DNA from: Octopus vulgaris
Taxonomy: Eukaryota
DNA length: 64,000 bases
Reading direction: 5' to 3'
Assembly: GCA_951406725.2 (NCBI GenBank)
Contig: OX597815.1
Coordinates: 179,242,001 to 179,306,000, forward strand
Positions within the stretch are counted from its first letter, which is position 1, and every line of letters starts with the position of its first letter. Below the pieces are notes generated by a model. The model saw nothing but the letters and a program-made list of their open reading frames with translations. It was not told where the DNA came from and did no database searches. The translations under genes and the position numbers were made by a program. This document shows positions 19,021-64,000 of this stretch, piece after piece.

Positions 19021-19737
19021 CGCCGGTTCGCGCACGCATGCGCCCGCATGCACCTCGCCCTTGGATCCGACGAGACCTCCCGCCCGTTCCTGGGATGTCG
19101 CGTGTCGTTGGGTTTTCCCACGCCCGTCTCCGCGGGACCACTCCTCCATCTTCCCCTCCGCTGGAGTCCTTTTCCTAAACCCCCCCCCCCCCTTTTTTTT
19201 CGTTACACACACGCGCACACATATACACACATTGCTTAAACATATACCTCACTCTTACACACATTCAATCTACTCGCCACTAATACTACCACGACACTGG
19301 ACACACACACACACTACCACTCAACACACGCTGGCACGCTACATACGCCCCCACCCCTTCCCCTCCCTCCCTTCCTCCTTCCTCCCTTTTCTCACTACTG
19401 ACCTTTGTCTGCTATGCTGCTGCTATGCTGACCACCGTCTCGCCCTACCTCACACGCCTACACACAGACGCACACACTAACACATACATATATTTTTTGT
19501 TTTTTACCTCGCCTCACACACACACATACACACACGCACACGCACACACTCACACATACACACACATCTGTTGCGTTACCAACCTTGTCTCCACTCTTTT
19601 GCCTTTAAAAACCCACTTTGCTCTTGTTATCGTAAACATCCGCCTTTCACCATGTGCTTCTGCTAACACCAGCCGTTTTTTTCTCTATCTCCGTTGCCCG
19701 CTCCGGGATCTTTCTTTCCTCTCTCTTCCTTCTTTAT

Positions 19738-19772
19738 GTTTCCGACGAAGAGCTCCGCTCGAAACGTCATAC
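19738..19772 (+). ncRNA. Hammerhead ribozyme motif, family A (GUC site), within a unit at ~19660-19865
   Basis: GTTT-CCGACGA-AGAGCTCCGCTC-GAAACGTC-ATAC; one mismatch in stem I. Confidence 0.6.
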
Positions 19773-19858
19773 CTTCCTGCTTCCATTTCCTGAGCGCCTA
19801 TTAATAATAATACTGTAATTGTTCCCTTGTTGTTGTTTTTTTGTTTCCCGTTTGGATT

Positions 19859-26693: not shown

Positions 26694-27480
<787 letters not shown>

Positions 27481-28700: not shown

Positions 28701-29053
28701 GCTGGAGAATTTGGGTGACTTTTATATCCATTACTAAAACACGCACACGCACACAGAAAAATACACATAGACACACACTCACGCGCGCACACACACGAAC
28801 GCGCGCACACACACGAACGCGCGCATATTTAGTGCCTTACCATACAGTATTGACCGCTATTTTATGGGGACGTAAACACACCAACATCGAGTTTCAAGCG
28901 ATGGAGGGGGGACAAACACAGACACACACACAGATACACACACAAACACACACACACATCCATTGCCTTCCGGTCATTCAATATGTGACCGCGTGTGTAT
29001 CGTTGGCGATTTTTCCCTCCGTCTTCCCTTCGTTGGATCTTTCCTTTTCCTAT

Positions 29054-29088
29054 GTTTCTGACGAAGAGCTCCGCTCGAAACGTTAAAT
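29054..29088 (+). ncRNA. Hammerhead ribozyme, family A, canonical CUGACGA core (unit ~28985-29195)
   Basis: GTTT-CTGACGA-AGAGCTCCGCTC-GAAACGTT-AAAT. Confidence 0.75.
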
Positions 29089-29195
29089 CCTCCTTCTTTC
29101 TTTCCTTTCCTGAGCATCCAATAACACTATACTTGTTCCACGTCCTCGCGTTGTTGTGTTTTCTCTTTGTGTTTTCATGTTTGGATTAACTTTAA

Positions 29196-29261
<66 letters not shown>

Positions 29262-29343
29262 GTGAAAAGGAACACACGAGTTGATATATATGAAAAAACA
29301 AGTCAAAATAGAAAATGCTAAAATAATTTTATAAAGAACATTT

Positions 29344-29381
29344 CAGTACCGGTTTCGGTCATTTTGAGACCTTTTCAACTG
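29344..29381 (-). ncRNA. pLTR hammerhead ribozyme (U3-A8 compensatory core), 3' pLTR
   Basis: CAG-TTGAAAA-GGTC(TCAAAAT)GACC-GAAAC-CG-GTA-CTG. Confidence 0.75.
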
Positions 29382-30077
29382 TAACGATTAAATAATTAAA
29401 TTTAGAAAAATTAGAAGAAAAGTTTTTTTAAAGGAATATTTGTATAGTAGTGTTCAAATATAAGTGGCATTCTGCCTTTCTCTGACTCCCTTGTTTGCAC
29501 TTGTGTGTTCGAGGTCGTTGTGAATTCTTGGTAGGGTAGAAGAAGAAGAAGGCTGAAGAGGAGAGGGGGTGGAAAAATTTGGGAGTGCCTTGATTGTTGT
29601 ATTTTGAATGGTCAGTGACGGCTAGCAGTTGCAGTTCAATTCAGGAGAATATTTCTATTGAGAGATTTGTTTATGGAATTTGCGTAGGTGTTTTACTAAA
29701 AAGCATTAGTGATAAAGTTAAGAGGTAGAAGGTGGAGCAGAAGAAGAAGAAGAAGAAGGAGAAGAAGAAGAAGAAGATGACGATGTTGATGATGATGATG
29801 ATGATGAAGAAGAAGAAGGAGAAGGAGAAGAAGAAGATGATGATGATGATGGTGGTGATGATGATGACGATGATGATGATAATGATGATGATGAAGAAGA
29901 AGAGGAAGAAGAAGAAAACAGAGAAGGGAGAATATGAATGGGTGAAAGTAGTGAGGTGTTGTATGACTTGAAGTTGGCATGTTATGGATTATAGCTGTGA
30001 TTGGGGCTGATTAGTAATGGATTCTTTGGAATGTAATATTTGTGTGTGTATTTCTTTTATTCTAAAGTTGAGGTATA

Positions 30078-32409
30078 TTAATCGTTTGTCGTAGACCCGT
30101 TAAGAAGTGGCCTGTATTTTGTAATAAAGAGAGTTTCTTTACTTATTCGTTGTCTCGAGGTTGTATCGTCCCTAAATTGGTAGAGGGGGAAAATCCTGAA
30201 GCCTGGTGTTTTGTTGTTGGCGCAAGTATCTATGTGTTGGCTGAAAGCTATTTTTCTGTTTTGGGGAATTTTTATCTGGGATCTGTGCAGGGCCATTCTT
30301 TTACGCAAACTATTTTTTGTTTGGCCTATGTACTGCTCTTGACACCCGGAGCAGGTTAGTGAGTATATTAGGTTCTCCGAAGCACATGTGAAGTTGCTTT
30401 TCACTGTAAACCGTTGTCCCTGTTTGAAGGAGAACTCTGATCCCTCAATTAGATAGTCGCATATCCCGCAATTGGGTCTTCCACATTTTTTTACTGTCGG
30501 CTTCTGTGTTGAAGAGTGAATTCGGGCTTGTGTTAGGAGACTTTTCATGGATTTAGGCTGTCTCTTGCTTTTTATGATCGTGTGTGTTTGGAGGATTGTG
30601 TTCATTTTGTGGTCTTTTTTTAGGAGGGGTATGTTGTGGAGGATGGTGCCGAAGGCTTCGTTATTGAGAGGGTTGTGTGTGGAGATGTATGGTAAGGCTT
30701 TTGGTCGTAAGTTTTTCTTTGATTTGGGATGTCTCAGTTCCTTGATGTTAAGTTGAAGGGCACGTTGAATGCACTTGTCAATAAGTGAAGGTGGATAGTT
30801 CCTGGTGATAAGGGTATCTTTTAGTTCTTGTAGTCGTGTGTCTCTGGTGTTTGCATTAGAGACTATAGTGCATATCCTTTTTGCTAGATTGAAGGGGATA
30901 TTCATCCTGGTGTGTCTGGGGTGGCATGAATTGAATGGAAGATATTGCTTAGAGTCTGTAGGCTTATAATATATGTCTGTTTCTATTACATTATTAGCTT
31001 TCTTAATGAGGATATCGAGGAAGGGGAGTTGTTGCTGGCTATATTCCATCGTGAATTGGATGTTTACGTCCAGTCCGTTTAAAATTTCTCGGAATTCTAT
31101 GAGTTTCTCAATATTTTCATGCCAAAGGATGAAACAGTCATCTAGATATCTCTTCCAGTTGTTTTCTATGTAGATGGAGAAAGGGCTGCCATATCTTTCT
31201 AGAACCTTACGATACAGACTGATCTCTAGATATCCTATGACTAGGTTGGCAAAGGAGGGGGCCATTCGTGTACCCATCGCAGTCCCCGATTTTTGTCGGT
31301 AGAAGTTGTCATTGAAGGCGAAGAAGTTATTTTCCAGGATGAATTTAACCCCTTCTATCACGAATTCTTTTTTGATGCGATGTGGTAGTTCGTTGGCGTG
31401 ATTCTCTAGCCAGAATTGGATTGCCTCTAGTCCTAGGTTGTGGGGGATATTGGAGTAGAGGTTGACTACATCGAAGGATACCAGTATGGTGTTTTTGTTT
31501 ATAGTATTCGGTAGGTGATTGAGCATATCCAAGTCGTCCCTTATATAGCTTTTGACATGTTTGAGGAGTGGTTTTAACAGGGTGTCTAAAAAGTTACTGA
31601 GGCGGTGGGTTTCGCATGCGGGACCTGCTATTATGGGTCTCAATTTGAGGTCATTAGGATTAGGGACTTTAATTATTTTGTCTGTAGCTATCTTGCATGC
31701 GTTGCTTATTTTCTCACTTTTGTGTATCTTAGGTATACCGTAGAATTGGATGGTTTTACTTGTGAAATTGGTCATATAATCATATTCTTTGTCGGTGAGC
31801 CCTGCTTTGTATGGGTTTAACATGGATTTTAGTTCCCTCATTATTTTTTGTTGACTGTAGTTTTGTGCCTTTTCATAGTATGTTGTGTCTTCCAGCATAG
31901 AAAGTACCAAAGTTATGTAAAATGTCGTATCCATTAAGACAACAGCACTCCCTTTATCGGCCTCTTTGATTGTTATTGTTTTATCTTGTTTTAATTTGTT
32001 CAACTCAGCCCATTCTTTTTTGCTGAAGTTTGGTTTGTGTTTTTGTTTGTGTATATGTTGATATGGGTAATTTGATATGTGGTCACAGAAATCATCAAGT
32101 GTTTTGTTCTTACCTTTAGAGGGGGTGTAGTTACTCCTATTTCTGACTAACGATTCGTCCTCGTTGTATTTATCGTATAGCTCCTCAGGTAAGTCTTAAT
32201 TTTCTGCAGAATTCTGCGATGTCTTCTTTCATTTCATTGTAGTTGGGGTGTTGTGGGGTGGGTGTAAACTTGAGTCCTTTGGAAAGTATGTTTATTTGGT
32301 TTGCTGTTAGTTCCTTGTGAGTTAGATTGATAATTTTTATTACTTTTGGTTCCTCCTGCTTGTTTGGTGCTATCTTGTGTCTCTGTGTTTGCGTATTGGG
32401 TCTAAAAAA
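30078..32409 (-). CDS. PLE reverse transcriptase + GIY-YIG endonuclease; N-terminus extends beyond the tracked ORF (1-nt frameshift at ~32188)
   Basis: ADKG, GIPKIHK, LRPII, SFDVVNLY, GTAMG, RYLDD, PFLD, CGRPNCGIC linker, LIY...YIGQT..LRKR motifs. Upstream INLTHKELTANQINILSKGLKFTPTP (PLE N-terminal motif) in a neighbouring frame. Confidence 0.93.
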
Positions 32410-33605
32410 TGAATGCGGTGGTTGGGACGGTAGCTATTATATAGTTGTTCTTTGTTGATGTGGGGTCTCCTGTTGTGATTTATGGTGTGTGTTCTTGGAG
32501 CAGTATTGAGGAGAGCGTCCCGATATCCCATATTCGGGTGTGGTGTTCTAGGAGGCCTTCGTTGGTAATCATTGCAAGTGGTGTGGGTTTGTTGTGCATG
32601 GTTGTTTAACCGGTTGATGGGACGAAGATTTCGTTGGTAACTCTTTTGGGTGGGGATAAGGTTGCAGTGTCTATGCTGTGGGTGTTGATTTATCCTTTCT
32701 CTGCTTGAAGTAGGGGTATTCCTGATATTGTATCGCTGGCTGCTTACAGAGTTAGGGTTAGGTCCTGTATTCTTTTTTTGATAGTAGTGAAGGTTCCGAT
32801 TTTTAGACAGGTGTGTATCGGTGTTTGGGTGTTGTTTTGGTTTTCTTATTTTCTGGAAAGGGTTGTTGGAGGCGTGCTCTGTTGGAAAGACGGCTTCATA
32901 GTCTGAGAACCAAGTGGCGCTTTTCTCCCAGCGTTGGAGAGATTTTAGTTCTTCTTTTTCACAGTCCTCTTTCCATAGTTTGGAGAACTTCTCTTGATCT
33001 GGGCCTTGGGTCATTTTGCGAATTTCTTCGTTGATATCTTCATCGGTGGATTTTATTTTATCCTCATTCGTTTGGGCCCTCAATTTCAGAAGTTTTATTT
33101 CCATTTTCATTTTTTCCAGTGCCATTCTTTCCCTGAGGCGTCTTCGTGTTTCAGGTTCCTCTGTAATAGTTTTGAACTGGAATTTACGTGGGAGGATTAA
33201 CGGGGTCCGGTTGAGCCATTTTTCGTATATATCCGCTTTGTTGTTGTTTTGGATCATCTTCCAAAAGGCGAACTTTCTATCTCTGAGTGATTTGTTCCAT
33301 TGTGGTATTATGTGGTGTTTCATTTGGTATGTTGTTAGAGTATTGATCCCATATATTGACGCGTTTGGGGGTCCTTGGTTAGCGTTGTTAGAGAAAAATG
33401 TTCTAATTGTTTCGCATAAGTTTCCAAGGTTTTCGACAATTTCGGAGGTTGTATTTTTCGTATCAGCTTCCTCATTGTTCTCTCGATTGGGTTGATGTGT
33501 CGAGTCGAATTTGTTCAAAAATGTTGACAAATTTGTGTTGATTTTCTTGAGTTCTTTCAGTATTTCTTCATTTATGGAGGTGATTGTGTCTGTTTTTGTC
33601 GGCAT
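32370..33605 (-). CDS. PLE1 ORF1: ~410 aa unknown protein, central coiled coil, basic N/H/R/P-rich disordered C-terminus
   Basis: Uninterrupted ORF between the 5' pLTR and RT. First ATG (MPTKTD) at 33605; the track's GTG start lies inside the pLTR. Heptad-like RLRERMALEKMKMEIKLLKLRAQTNEDKIKSTDEDINEEI. Confidence 0.8.
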   Translation of the reverse strand: MPTKTDTITSINEEILKELKKINTNLSTFLNKFDSTHQPNRENNEEADTKNTTSEIVENLGNLCETIRTFFSNNANQGPPNASIYGINTLTTYQMKHHIIPQWNKSLRDRKFAFWKMIQNNNKADIYEKWLNRTPLILPRKFQFKTITEEPETRRRLRERMALEKMKMEIKLLKLRAQTNEDKIKSTDEDINEEIRKMTQGPDQEKFSKLWKEDCEKEELKSLQRWEKSATWFSDYEAVFPTEHASNNPFQKIRKPKQHPNTDTHLSKNRNLHYYQKKNTGPNPNSVSSQRYNIRNTPTSSRERINQHPQHRHCNLIPTQKSYQRNLRPINRLNNHAQQTHTTCNDYQRRPPRTPHPNMGYRDALLNTAPRTHTINHNRRPHINKEQLYNSYRPNHRIHFLDPIRKHRDTR

Positions 33606-33724
33606 TTTCTGTATCTCGTGTGGGTTAATGATATGTATAAGGGTGAAAAGGAACACACGAGTTGATATATATGAAAAAACAAGTCAAAATAGAAAATGCT
33701 AAAATAATTTTATAAAGAACATTT

Positions 33725-33762
33725 CAGTACCGGTTTCGGTCATTTTGAGACCTTTTCAACTG
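33725..33762 (-). ncRNA. pLTR hammerhead ribozyme, 5' pLTR
   Basis: Identical to 29344-29381. Confidence 0.75.
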
Positions 33763-33999
33763 TAACGATTAAATAATTAAATTTAGAAAAATTAGAAGAA
33801 AAGTTTTTTTAAAGGAATATTTGTATAGTAGTGTTCAAATATAAGTGGCATTCTTGCCTTTCTCTGACTCGAACACACAAGTGCAAACAAGGGAGTCAGA
33901 GAAAGGCAGAATGCCACTTATATTTGAACACTACTATACAAATATTCCTTTAAAAAAACTTTTCTTCTAATTTTTCTAAATTTAATTATTTAATCGTTA

Positions 34000-34037
34000 C
34001 AGTTGAAAAGGTCTCAAAATGACCGAAACCGGTACTG
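34000..34037 (+). ncRNA. pLTR hammerhead ribozyme, inverted pLTR
   Basis: CAGTTGAAAAGGTCTCAAAATGACCGAAACCGGTACTG read directly on plus. Confidence 0.75.
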
Positions 34038-34085
34038 AAATGTTCTTTATAAAATTATTTTAGCATTTTCTATTTTGACTTGTTT

Positions 34086-34475
<390 letters not shown>

Positions 34476-39554: not shown

Positions 39555-39740
39555 AGATGAGGAATTATGCCTCATTATTTACATTATTTACATTATTTAC
39601 ATTTGACGGATATTTGCCCTTGTCTTTTGTTGTTAACACGTTTTGGCTGATATACCCTCCAGCCTTCTTGGGGTTAGTAGTCCCAGCTCTTAACCACTAC
39701 GCCATATGCCCGTGGTTAAGAGTGTGGGTATATGGCGTTT
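39555..39740 (-). mobile_element. Internally deleted copy of the tRNA-headed HHR SINE
   Basis: Shares GCTGATATACCCTCCAGCCTT and GGGTTAGTAGTCC...CTCTTAACCACTACGCCA with 54869-55204. Confidence 0.7.
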
Positions 39741-42885: not shown

Positions 42886-43689
42886 TAAAAATGCAAAGGA
42901 AAGCAAAAAATGCAGGTTAAGGCCCAATGCTTACGTAGGTATGAAAAGAGAAACAAATCTTACAGACAAAATAATGTTATGTTAACGGGGCTAAAGTGCT
43001 CAGGGTAAAACTGCTGGGTATATTTGAAACCGGTGCTAGAGAGTTAGGGAAACAGTCGATCAAAGTAAAAGACCCGCCTGACATAAAAGTAGTGACATTT
43101 TGGAAGAGTATATAGAGCAATAGAAAGGAATTCAACAAAGAAGCTGAATGGGTATGGAGATAAAAAGAAAGAATGGCTAAGATTGAAGAACAAGGATGGA
43201 ATGGTACTACAATGCAGGAACTATTTCAAGTTCTCGTTAAGGTTCTCTCAACAGATATTCTATAGAAATTATAATCGGCATTGATTTTTGTTACTACGTT
43301 TCGTATACGAGACGTCAGATGTAAATCAACAATGAGATCGAAAATGAAAAATGGGGATTGGGCGTATATGCATATTTCAGGAATTTTTCCCCCTTCATCA
43401 GTATCTGTCTAATCCATTAATCATCCTCGAACACATTGCTTAAATATCCACACTATATAGTGGTGTGTAGTTGCTGGATATACCAATTTACATATTACAC
43501 GCATTTCTGGAGCTGGTACGTAAATATTAATGATTTTTAGGTACGCGGTATTCCGTAATACAACCATAATATACTATAAAGTATACTAATCGTTTTTATA
43601 AGTCCCAAAATTCTGGCTTAATAGCCTCTCATCATCACATTGTCAGTTAACGGAATGTTTCTCTAACACCATCAGAAACCCCAAGAAGA

Positions 43690-54868: not shown

Positions 54869-55036
54869 CATTATTTATATCATTTATATTATTTACATTT
54901 GACTGATATTTGTCCTCATCTTGTTTGTTGTTAACACAACGTTTCCGCTGATATACCCTCCAGCCTTTATCAGGTGTCTTAGGGGAAATTTCGAACCTGG
55001 GTTCTATTTTTCCTAAGGTATTTTTCGATGTTGTTG

Positions 55037-56910: not shown

Positions 56911-56961
56911 ATAGGTATATATATATATATATATGTTTCTCTCCTTGTTTTTTCTGTGTCC

Positions 56962-56997
56962 CTTTCTGGAGAAGAGCGTAGGCTCGAAACGTAAAAG
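56962..56997 (+). ncRNA. Hammerhead motif, family B (unit ~56935-57090)
   Basis: CTTT-CTGGAGA-A-GAGC(GTAG)GCTC-GAAACGTA-AAAG. Stem I covaries with family A; A6G in the core. Confidence 0.6.
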
Positions 56998-57183
56998 ACT
57001 TTTTCTATTCCTGAGCGTTATACTAATACATCTGTTTGTTTTGTACACCACCTGTCTTCGTCTTTTGTTTTTTTCGTAAACTCTCCCTATATAAATATAT
57101 ATAATTTCAATATGTGACCTCGTGAGTACCGCTGGCGATTTTTTTCCTCTGTCTTCCCTTCTCGGGATCTTTCCTTCTCCTAT

Positions 57184-57218
57184 GTTTCCGACGAAGAGCT
57201 CCGCTCGAAACGGTAAAC
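57184..57218 (+). ncRNA. Hammerhead motif, family A (U16.1G, probably inactive; unit ~57115-57320)
   Basis: GTTT-CCGACGA-AGAGCTCCGCTC-GAAACGGT-AAAC. Confidence 0.55.
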
Positions 57219-57403
57219 CCTCCTTCTTCCCTTCTTTCCTGAGCGTCCAATAATACTTTATTTGTTCCACGTCCTCGCGTTGCTGTGTTTTTCGTGTGTT
57301 TTCTTGTTTGGATTAACTTTATATATATATATATATATATATATTATTAGTGAATTGAAGAAATGGAGTTGAACGAAGATTGAACAGAAATCGTTTTATT
57401 GCA

Positions 57404-59996: not shown

Positions 59997-60074
59997 GTTG
60001 AGTTGTGGGGTATCGCACGAGTGGGATTATATAAGAAAAAAGGTTTGAAAATGCAATTTAAACGATGTTTATTT

Positions 60075-60115
60075 ACTTAACCGGTTTCACTCTTTGGTAA
60101 AAGATTGTCAAAAGT
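60075..60115 (-). ncRNA. Hammerhead-like motif (U3-A8 variant) in the PLE2 terminus
   Basis: ACTT-TTGACAA-TCTTT(TACC)AAAGA-GT-GAAAC-CG-GTT-AAGT. Confidence 0.55.
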
Positions 60116-60128
60116 TACATTTAAGGAA

Positions 60129-62208: not shown

Positions 62209-64000
62209 TTAGAGTATGTTTAGTTGTGGTCTGTATTTTTGAATAAGATTACTTTCCTTATTTATTCGTGTTTGGTCTGTGGTGTTGTCCGAGCATTGGT
62301 ATAGTGGGAAGACTAAGAATTTGGGGGACTTATTGTGTGCACAAAGGTCTAAGTGTCCACTTAGTGGTATCTGTCTTGTGGAGGGGTCCCTCAGTTGTTG
62401 TCGGTAAACTGTCATTCTGTCTCTGAGGGTAAGGCTCGTTTGCCCTATGTAGTCTTAGTGGCATCCTTCACACCTTATGACGTAGAGTAAATTTTTTGAT
62501 GCGCACGTGAAGTTATTTTTTATGATGAATGTGTGTCCCGAGTGGAACTTGTACGACGATCCCTCAATGAGGTGGATGCAGGTCTTACAGTTGGGGCGAC
62601 CACATTTTTTGATGGTGAGCGGTGGGTTTGTGTTGTGTAATTTTGCGTTGGTGAGGAGGTTTTTTAGGGATTTAGGTTGTCTCTTACTTTTTATTATTTT
62701 ATGAGCTGCCAGTATTTTTTTCAGGCGTGGGTCTTGATTTAGTTGTGGAATGTTGTTGTATATAATAGTGTAAGCTTCTGCATTCCTTGGGTTGTGTGTT
62801 GAGAGATAAGGGAGGCTATTGACTGTACTGTGGATGTGTTTGGGTTTTCGAAGGTCTTGAATGTTGATTGATTTGGCCCGTTCTATTCCGTTGTCTACTA
62901 GTGATGCCGGGTAATGTCTTTCGAGAAGAATTGCCCTTAGTTCCCGGAGTCTTCTATTTCGTGTTGTGTCATTTGAGACAATAGTGCAGATTCTTCTCGC
63001 TAGGTTGAAGGGGATATTTGTCTTTGTGTGTTTTGGGTGATTGGAGGTGAATAGAAGGTATTGTTTAGAGTCAGTGGGTTTGTAATGGATGTCAGTTTCA
63101 ATGTTGACGCCTTTTTTAATGATTAGGATGTCAAGAAAAGGGAGTTGGTCCTGACTATATTCCATTGTGAATTGAATGTTGTTATTTACACTGTTGATAA
63201 GGTTTTTGAAGTCTATAAGTTGGTCGAGTGTGTGGGACCATAGGATGAGGCAATCATCTAAGTAGCGTTTCCAGTTCTCCAACAGGTATTTGTGGAAAGA
63301 CTGGCCGTACTTATATTTGGATTTTTCATAGATATGTGATTCCAGGTAGGCCATCACCAGGTTTGCATAGGTAGGTGCAACTTTCGTACCCATTGCAGTC
63401 CCTGAGACCTGTCTGTAAGTGTTGTTGTGGAAATACATGAAGTTGTTTTGCAGAATAAATTTGAGGCCCTCAATTATGAATTCTTTTTTAATTCTTTCCG
63501 GGATCTCATTGGGATATTTATCCAGCCAGAATTTAATGGCTTCCAGTCCAAATTCATGTGGGATTGTGGTGTAAAGATTAATAACATCAAAAGAAACGAT
63601 TAAGGTGTCTTTATCGGCATGTTTGGGGAGATGGTTTAATAGGTCCAGGTCATCTCTTACAATACTTGGAATGTGTTTCAGTATTGGCTTTAAGATGATA
63701 TCTATAAAGTTGCTAAGTCTGTGTGTTTCACAACTTGGGCCTGCCACTATTGGTCTCAGTTTGAGATCAGTGGGATGTGGTATAGTGATGCAGGTTGAAG
63801 TGGACTTTTTGCAAGCTTCTGTGATAATTTGACTCTTGTGTATTTTTGGAAGCCCATAGAGTGTGCTGGTTTTGCAATTAAATTTAGTAATGTAGTCGCA
63901 TTCCTTTGCTGTCAAGTAATTCCGGTGTTGGTAAATGAGTGCCTTCAGATTGGTCATTGTTTTGGATTGCTGGTAGTCGACTACTCTTTCGTAGTATGTG
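62209..64000 (-). pseudogene. PLE2 RT + GIY-YIG with one premature TAA (62455-62457) inside the GIY-YIG motif
   Basis: ORF 62455-63957 (GLPKIHK, RYLDD, CGRPNCKTC, LLYVIRC) continues in frame as *DYIGQT... into ORF 62209-62415. Clearly homologous to the PLE1 protein. Confidence 0.92.

Follow-up and report, generated by a model that had tools for sequence, protein, structure and literature searches.

A Penelope-like element (PLE) of Octopus vulgaris carries a genuine hammerhead motif of minimal type I, with predicted cutting, in which the usual C3–G8 core pair is replaced by U3–A8. The element lies in a 64,000-nt stretch of contig OX597815.1 (positions 179,242,001 to 179,306,000 of assembly GCA_951406725.2), hereafter the window, whose first letter is position 1. 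The motif, CAG-UUGAAAA-GGUC-(7 nt)-GACC-GAAACCGGUA-CUG, is 38 nt long and without any difference among its three copies, which are located in the pseudo-long terminal repeats (pLTRs) of the element, two of them sense to its minus-strand reverse transcriptase (RT) gene and one inverted:

29344 to 29381, minus strand: hammerhead of the 3′ pLTR copy (sense), with U3 at 29378, A8 at 29373, A17 at 29347 and the predicted cut at 29347/29346.
33725 to 33762, minus strand: hammerhead of the 5′ direct pLTR copy (sense), with the predicted cut at 33728/33727, 122 nt upstream of the ATG of the first open reading frame (ORF1).
34000 to 34037, plus strand: hammerhead of the pLTR copy in inverted orientation (antisense to the gene).

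The core reads U3-U-G-A-A-A8-A and is accompanied by GAAA, a palindromic ACCGGU and the cut site A17 in UA; UUGAAAA, GAAA and UA supply the N3-UGAN-N8-A, GAAA and UH elements of a minimal hammerhead, with positions 3 and 8 paired. The topology is type I: stem I, CAG/CUG, has 3 bp and 4 more beyond a mismatch, stem II, GGUC/GACC, has 4 bp with an opening G10.1–C11.1 pair and a loop of 7 nt, and ACCGGU provides a palindromic minimal stem III, for which a dimer fold is predicted. The unpaired base between positions 9 and 10.1 of the consensus published in 2014 is absent. It is likewise missing in the related locus L022 and in two entries of the 2014 Fig. S3 (M. japonicus and S. kowalevskii 2; PMC4209133), and we treat it as a typical, not a defining, feature of minimal hammerheads. 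The two sense motifs are direct repeats and, like their predicted cuts, are separated by 4381 nt. A pattern of the 32-nt core has exactly 3 matches within the window, as against 0 expected by chance, and, of 20,000 dinucleotide shuffles of the 253-nt pLTR, 4 contained a minimal hammerhead of whatever kind and 0 contained one whose stem III is palindromic. Pattern search and alignment agree with a previous, sequence-only reading of this DNA, which had placed the motif in all three pLTR copies, two sense and one inverted. The three copies are one motif duplicated in one insertion event and not three independent findings; because all come from that insertion (the pLTRs are 99–100% identical), their agreement is not conservation.

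Support for the compensatory pair comes from related loci, of which 97 were scanned (17 from one search and 80 of 364 confirmed stretches) with a descriptor that left positions 3 and 8 free. The two positions form a Watson–Crick pair in 27 of 27 distinct sense-strand motifs (20 C–G, 5 U–A in 4 loci, 1 A–U and 1 G–C); the 12 other classes have no match on the sense strand and one, A–A, on the other strand, and shuffles of the loci (n = 30) yield at most 0.07 matches per class. At the level of sequence, these motifs show free exchange among Watson–Crick pairs at 3 and 8 across families, and they bear out the earlier assignment of the motif to the minimal type I hammerheads of PLEs with a compensatory U3–A8. 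The pair is also kept in 52 of 53 distinct model-aligned matches, a count biased by a model trained on C3–G8. Natural A3–U8 and G3–C8 cores lie at L058:1969 and L066:117, respectively, both Penelope-like loci.

Closer to the window element, 9 of 13 relatives carry a motif downstream of the endonuclease gene, 7 with C3–G8 and 2 with a weak U3–A8, and an identical GAAACCGGU occurs in three of these close relatives (L019, L020 and L023). In a quick tree of 41 rows, from which L025 and L026 were left out as their matches were too short, the window falls inside a set of 9 rows (SH-aLRT 96) whose other motif-bearing rows are C3–G8 in 6 of 6 cases. U3–A8 is scattered over this tree, which suggests repeated switches between C3–G8 and U3–A8. 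A covariance model, R3, was built from 9 C3–G8 relatives that were picked for sharing the 6-nt palindrome, all from outside the window. Of its 12 matches in the 64 kb, the three copies take ranks 1–3, each at 25.5 bits with a rough E of 4.9e-4.

The sequence-only reading had also noted that PLE hammerheads with a palindromic stem III can cleave as dimers, and a dimer fold is indeed predicted. Two copies are predicted to cofold into a double hammerhead at −27.1 kcal/mol with U3 paired to A17 and at −24.9 kcal/mol in the active shape, compared with −19.6 kcal/mol for two monomers; the predicted intermolecular stem III has 6 bp and a probability of 0.93 in a 120-nt context. In 52-nt folds, the U3:A17 form is the predicted minimum of both monomer and dimer, by 2.2–2.3 kcal/mol, and is predicted to act as a trap of the same kind as the known C3–G17 pairing, the proposed reason that G17 cripples minimal hammerheads (PMC3884650). 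As the nearest relative, L002, and L021 hold A17 together with C3–G8, the clash between U3 and A17 may have come with the switch to U3.

Several results weigh against this reading of the motif. Each copy scores 20.9 bits with Rfam HH9 (E 0.29, gathering threshold 52), too low for assignment to a hammerhead family of Rfam clan CL00010, and the monomer fold does not exceed shuffled sequences in stability (z −0.2 to −0.9). Stem II has a probability of only 0.11–0.17 in a 270-nt monomer context, and U3:A17 one of 0.005 in the 120-nt dimer, with another register competing. The broader model R1, trained on 23 mixed C3–G8 relatives in an alignment that fitted 6-nt palindromes badly, misses all three copies at E 5, just as a CUGANGA search misses the motif, which the sequence-only reading had foreseen. 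The tree placement comes from a quick tree search. Within the family, whose copies were viewed via contigs of three runs on the pLTR (4215, 532 and 19) with 40 of 76 variant rows listed, the listed variants number 3 in the 38-nt motif versus 14 in the other 246 nt of 29262–29545, which gives the motif no sign of conservation beyond that of the flanking sequence; a raw-read run, X21, had 0 reads on the stretch. The most frequent variant changes C11.1 to U, reaches 34% of depth in run X3, lies inside a CpG and may be simple decay. Stem conservation, whose absence among family copies the sequence-only reading had named as a refutation, is thus borne out between families, while within this one the listed variants speak neither for nor against it. 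No listed variant touches A17, the core or either of stems I and III, and in run X8 all 4 T-to-C places fall elsewhere, so that A8 is not G at a level of at least 2%.

A sister subfamily over 29363–29381 (55 contigs in X3 and 2 in X17) keeps UUGAAAA and CAG and differs just upstream, and one X17 contig apparently has A10.1–U11.1 instead of G–C, judged from matching depths. The CAG in the 5′ strand of stem I follows a U-rich stretch, much as at the end of the intron that adjoins the hammerhead of D. virilis. A 3′ splice site at 29379–29430 on the minus strand, where the U-rich stretch ends in UUACAG, is not supported: none of 3 joints shows splice ends, and the AG is missing from close relatives.

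The insertion that carries the motif spans 29261–34097 and is flanked on both sides by (TA)n runs. On the minus strand, it is ordered as an inverted pLTR, a truncated direct pLTR, ORF1, the RT–endonuclease gene, a 3′ untranslated region and a pLTR with a 23-nt tail:

29198 to 29260, no strand: (TA)n target, left flank, from the sequence.
29261 to 29513, minus strand: 3′ pLTR (at least this extent), ending in the 23-nt tail 29261–29283, which is not in the inverted copy.
30078 to 32409, minus strand: frame for RT and, at the C terminus, GIY-YIG endonuclease, with DKG, a CX4CxxC linker and CCHH, broken near 32190.
33642 to 33870, minus strand: direct pLTR, 5′-truncated, equal to 29261–29488 apart from one additional base.
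33868 to 34097, plus strand: inverted pLTR of 230 nt, 100% complementary to 29284–29513, with a 3-nt overlap at the inversion junction.
34090 to 34316, no strand: (TA)n target, right flank, from the sequence.

The location of the motif, in the pLTRs of a PLE and sense to the RT gene, is that of known minimal hammerheads, and this set of two pLTR copies in direct and one in inverted orientation is an ordinary outcome of one insertion. The protein matches RVT_1 (E 4.6e-8) and GIY-YIG (E 1.4e-4, 22.5 bits against a cut-off of 22.6). DKG lies at residue 80 and the CX4CxxC linker at residue 571; in the endonuclease CCHH, C615, C618 and H637 are invariant and H654 nearly so among 37 sequences. DKG, a CX2-5CxxC linker and CCHH are given for Neptune-type elements, and a linker of this kind is also found in Nematis (PMC8557442). 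We accordingly name the element a Neptune-type, endonuclease-bearing PLE, a clade name based on motifs and target alone. Near 32190, 12 of 14 homologues match in two frames and the other 2 start downstream; as its RT frame is broken, the window copy would depend on the protein of another copy. A non-LTR retrozyme, in which every unit of a short, non-coding tandem array has its own hammerhead, can be rejected: the unit here is 4381 nt and codes for the RT–endonuclease. Among viral contigs, 0 of 50 candidate stretches proved to be a relative. The 3′ untranslated region contains ~190 nt of mixed trinucleotide repeats (29730–29920). Some records that bear the label of a bacterial genome or a symbiont protein also contain Penelope-like elements (L001–L017; P0047, P0048, P0053, P0075, P0092 and P0102), most likely as host DNA in the assemblies.

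The extent of the insertion bears on which RNA was copied. Upstream of the 5′ predicted cut it holds a further 143 nt, and downstream of the 3′ predicted cut a further 86 nt. Contigs of the family pass into (TA)n at 29284 (58 contigs, X3) and 29263 (9 contigs, X8), beyond the cut site. Because the insertion and the family 3′ ends extend past the cuts, the excised linear, unit-length RNA envisaged by the sequence-only reading is not supported as the template, and a doubly cut linear molecule would leave both overhangs unexplained. A circle and an uncut tandem RNA are both possible templates that fit the insertion structure.

We consider it probable that the motif cuts a minority of transcripts, slowly, in dimer form and probably with the aid of a protein. 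In this model, the C3–G8 pair of a Neptune-type minimal hammerhead would have been replaced by U3–A8, and two copies would pair via their ACCGGU palindromes, with slow cutting in the paired state only. A protein would probably help, and pairing of U3 with the cut-site A17 would hold part of the RNA inactive. Of the tandem or read-through transcripts, a minority would then be trimmed or turned over, whereas the template of new insertions would be RNA left intact at these sites, or joined again after cutting. Reverse transcription would begin 63 or about 85 nt downstream of the cut.

A near-inert motif, in which U3:A17 extends stem I over the cut site and the fold persists as a passenger or as a dimerization or protein-binding site, is unlikely but far from negligible. 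As described above, the predicted folds of monomer and dimer both have their minimum with U3:A17, and trapping by C3–G17 lowers the activity of minimal hammerheads at least 300-fold (PMC3884650). Other U3–A8 motifs have other cut-site bases: the two published examples in the part of the 2014 alignment available have U17 and G17 (PMC4209133), 4 strict U3–A8 loci among the relatives have U17 or C17, and a second U3–A8 family in the window, described below, has U17. Naiad elements, moreover, spread without hammerheads (PMC8557442). On the other hand, U–A is weaker than C–G, U3 is combined with A17 also in L082 and, doubtfully, in L029, the 40 family variant rows listed include none at A17 or in the core, and nearest-neighbour energies leave out the tertiary contacts of the core. 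Alternatively, both sense hammerheads could cut and the 4381-nt unit circularize, with reverse transcription around the circle giving more-than-unit insertions with pLTRs, as proposed in 2014 (PMC4209133) and in keeping with the circularisable RNA of the sequence-only reading. The exact 4381-nt spacing of the cut sites fits such a circle, which would explain the sequence retained on both sides of each cut, and two sense copies on one transcript could dimerize in cis. We nevertheless judge it unlikely: an uncut tandem transcript accounts for the same structure, the anole element uses mainly uncut RNA, with no reads starting or stopping at the cut site (PMC11167929), and a transcript entering via the inverted pLTR is predicted to lock the 5′ motif, with all 38 of its bases paired, inside a ~190-bp hairpin. 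Mere coincidence in repeat DNA rich in AT, copied along with the pLTRs, would suit the AT-rich core, the weak monomer fold, the low Rfam score and the non-independent copies, but is refuted in effect by the shuffles, by the 3–8 pairs of the related loci, by the motif sharing its stem III and its place 3′ of the endonuclease gene with the C3–G8 motif of relatives, and by its top rank with the independent model R3.

Upstream of the RT frame, a second feature may govern the dosage of the protein:

32370 to 33605, minus strand: ORF1, 411 aa, with no Pfam match and with homologous upstream ORFs in 8 related elements.
32403 to 32409, minus strand: U-UUU-UUA slippery heptamer, a candidate programmed −1 frameshift site in the ORF1/RT overlap.

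The RT frame begins without a Met, and its start is overlapped by ORF1 at the slippery heptamer. Homologues of ORF1 lie upstream of RT in 8 loci at E below 1e-7, and an in-phase U-UUU-UUR is present in the overlap of all 8, as well as in L018 and L027 (the loci with the site are L001, L018, L019, L020, L023, L024, L025, L026, L027 and L029), with shuffle probabilities per locus of 5e-5 to 0.043. This conservation in 8 of 8 loci points to a likely programmed −1 frameshift at the ORF1/RT junction. Athena elements carry a similar slippery site. The similar loci L067, L072 and L085 lack U-UUU-UUR, no downstream hairpin is common to the slippery-site loci (−0.2 kcal/mol in the window), 0 of 2966 long candidates is a fused ORF1–RT protein, which is weak evidence, and the ESM Atlas holds no usable match for ORF1. 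No paper on such a frameshift in Neptune was found by a search that could not see the 2021 figure (PMC8557442). Its novelty for the Neptune clade is uncertain because the Fig. 1 legend of that paper mentions an ORF1 separable by a frameshift in some Penelope type. The site is a separate lead on RT dosage in these elements, perhaps worth more than the hammerhead. Linking the two, a self-locked ribozyme, in which U3 would clamp the cut site in the A17 lineage until released by the element's own protein, itself kept scarce by the conserved −1 frameshift, is quite improbable; if true, it would include a −1 frameshift from ORF1 that is new for the endonuclease-bearing clade.

Other hammerhead-like motifs are present in the window. 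A second pLTR family has the U3–A8 core UUGACAA, the same GAAACCGGU stem III and U17, at 60074–60116 (minus strand) and 26895–26937 (plus strand); both remnants end in (TA)n with 44-nt tandem repeats upstream, and one has an inverted arm at 26761–26813. A canonical C3–G8 minimal hammerhead lies at 29053–29089 (plus strand) in an abundant short repeat (about 28981–29197), just left of the (TA)n target, with further copies of the motif at 1180–1216, 19737–19773, 56961–56998 and 57183–57219, three with U4 changed to C; these short repeats are probably solo pLTRs of another family. Model R1 also finds hammerhead-like remnants at 54933–54978, 39637–39674 and 43366–43406, all on the minus strand. 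A partial second Neptune-like RT–endonuclease gene, with 66% DNA identity to the main element, occupies about 62211–64000 (minus strand) and reaches the window end, with no recognizable pLTR motif downstream of it.

Earlier publications already cover this type of motif, its core variant and the hypothesis of a circle. The U3–A8 core is thus not new: C3–G8 covaries to U3–A8 in several natural hammerheads already found active in vitro (Perreault et al. 2011, PMC3088659), and ~1,300 U3–A8 motifs are reported from S. mansoni, with a UUGAAAAA motif listed in a Cercyon element and UUGAAAA among the cores (Cervera and De la Pena 2014, PMC4209133). The supplement file searched for that paper has no octopus entry, and literature searches, which left subscription papers mostly uncovered, returned nothing beyond it for an octopus hammerhead or a named U3–A8 variant. 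Beyond confirming that Penelope ribozymes are undercounted by searches fixed on CUGANGA, the present analysis adds sequence evidence for all four Watson–Crick pairs at 3 and 8 in these elements, and, with U3 and A17 combined in one motif, the dependence of the cut-site rule on base 3 could be tested at little cost.

Similar to the minimal hammerheads of S. mansoni Cercyon elements, as described in the 2014 paper (PMC4209133), the window motif is type I, sits in both pLTRs and has a palindromic minimal stem III and a short stem I; it also shares G10.1–C11.1, the U-rich 5′ and AU-rich 3′ flanks and the nearby opposite-strand copies, and its core is that of S. mansoni (4) in Fig. S3. As opposed to those motifs, it has a Neptune-type host, no extra base between 9 and 10.1, a 4-bp stem II and a palindrome of 6 nt (ACCGGU) rather than the usual 4, and it combines A17 with U3, which none of the U3 motifs listed there does. 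Penelope-like minimal hammerheads cut weakly even as dimers, according to the same source. The U3–A8 examples of 2011 show the same covariation and, in the text available, are not tied to Penelope pLTRs or dimers (PMC3088659). The host resembles Neptune (Craig et al. 2021, PMC8557442) in its RT followed by GIY-YIG, CX2-5CxxC linker, CCHH, DKG and (TA)n target; relative to the available description, it has in addition an upstream ORF1 that overlaps the RT frame at a conserved slippery site. Its two direct and one inverted pLTRs with a one-sided tail match Pen2a_Av (Arkhipova et al. 2013, PMC3846280). Finally, PAc, a Poseidon element from Anolis carolinensis (Frangieh et al. 2024, PMC11167929), also has a pLTR hammerhead, an AT-rich target and a tail delimited by two neighbouring 3′ ends, and its hammerhead is reported to cut only with the element's protein and to be dispensable for insertion in vitro; PAc differs in having C3–G8 and a start codon inside the ribozyme, whereas the ATG in the window lies 122 nt downstream of the cut.

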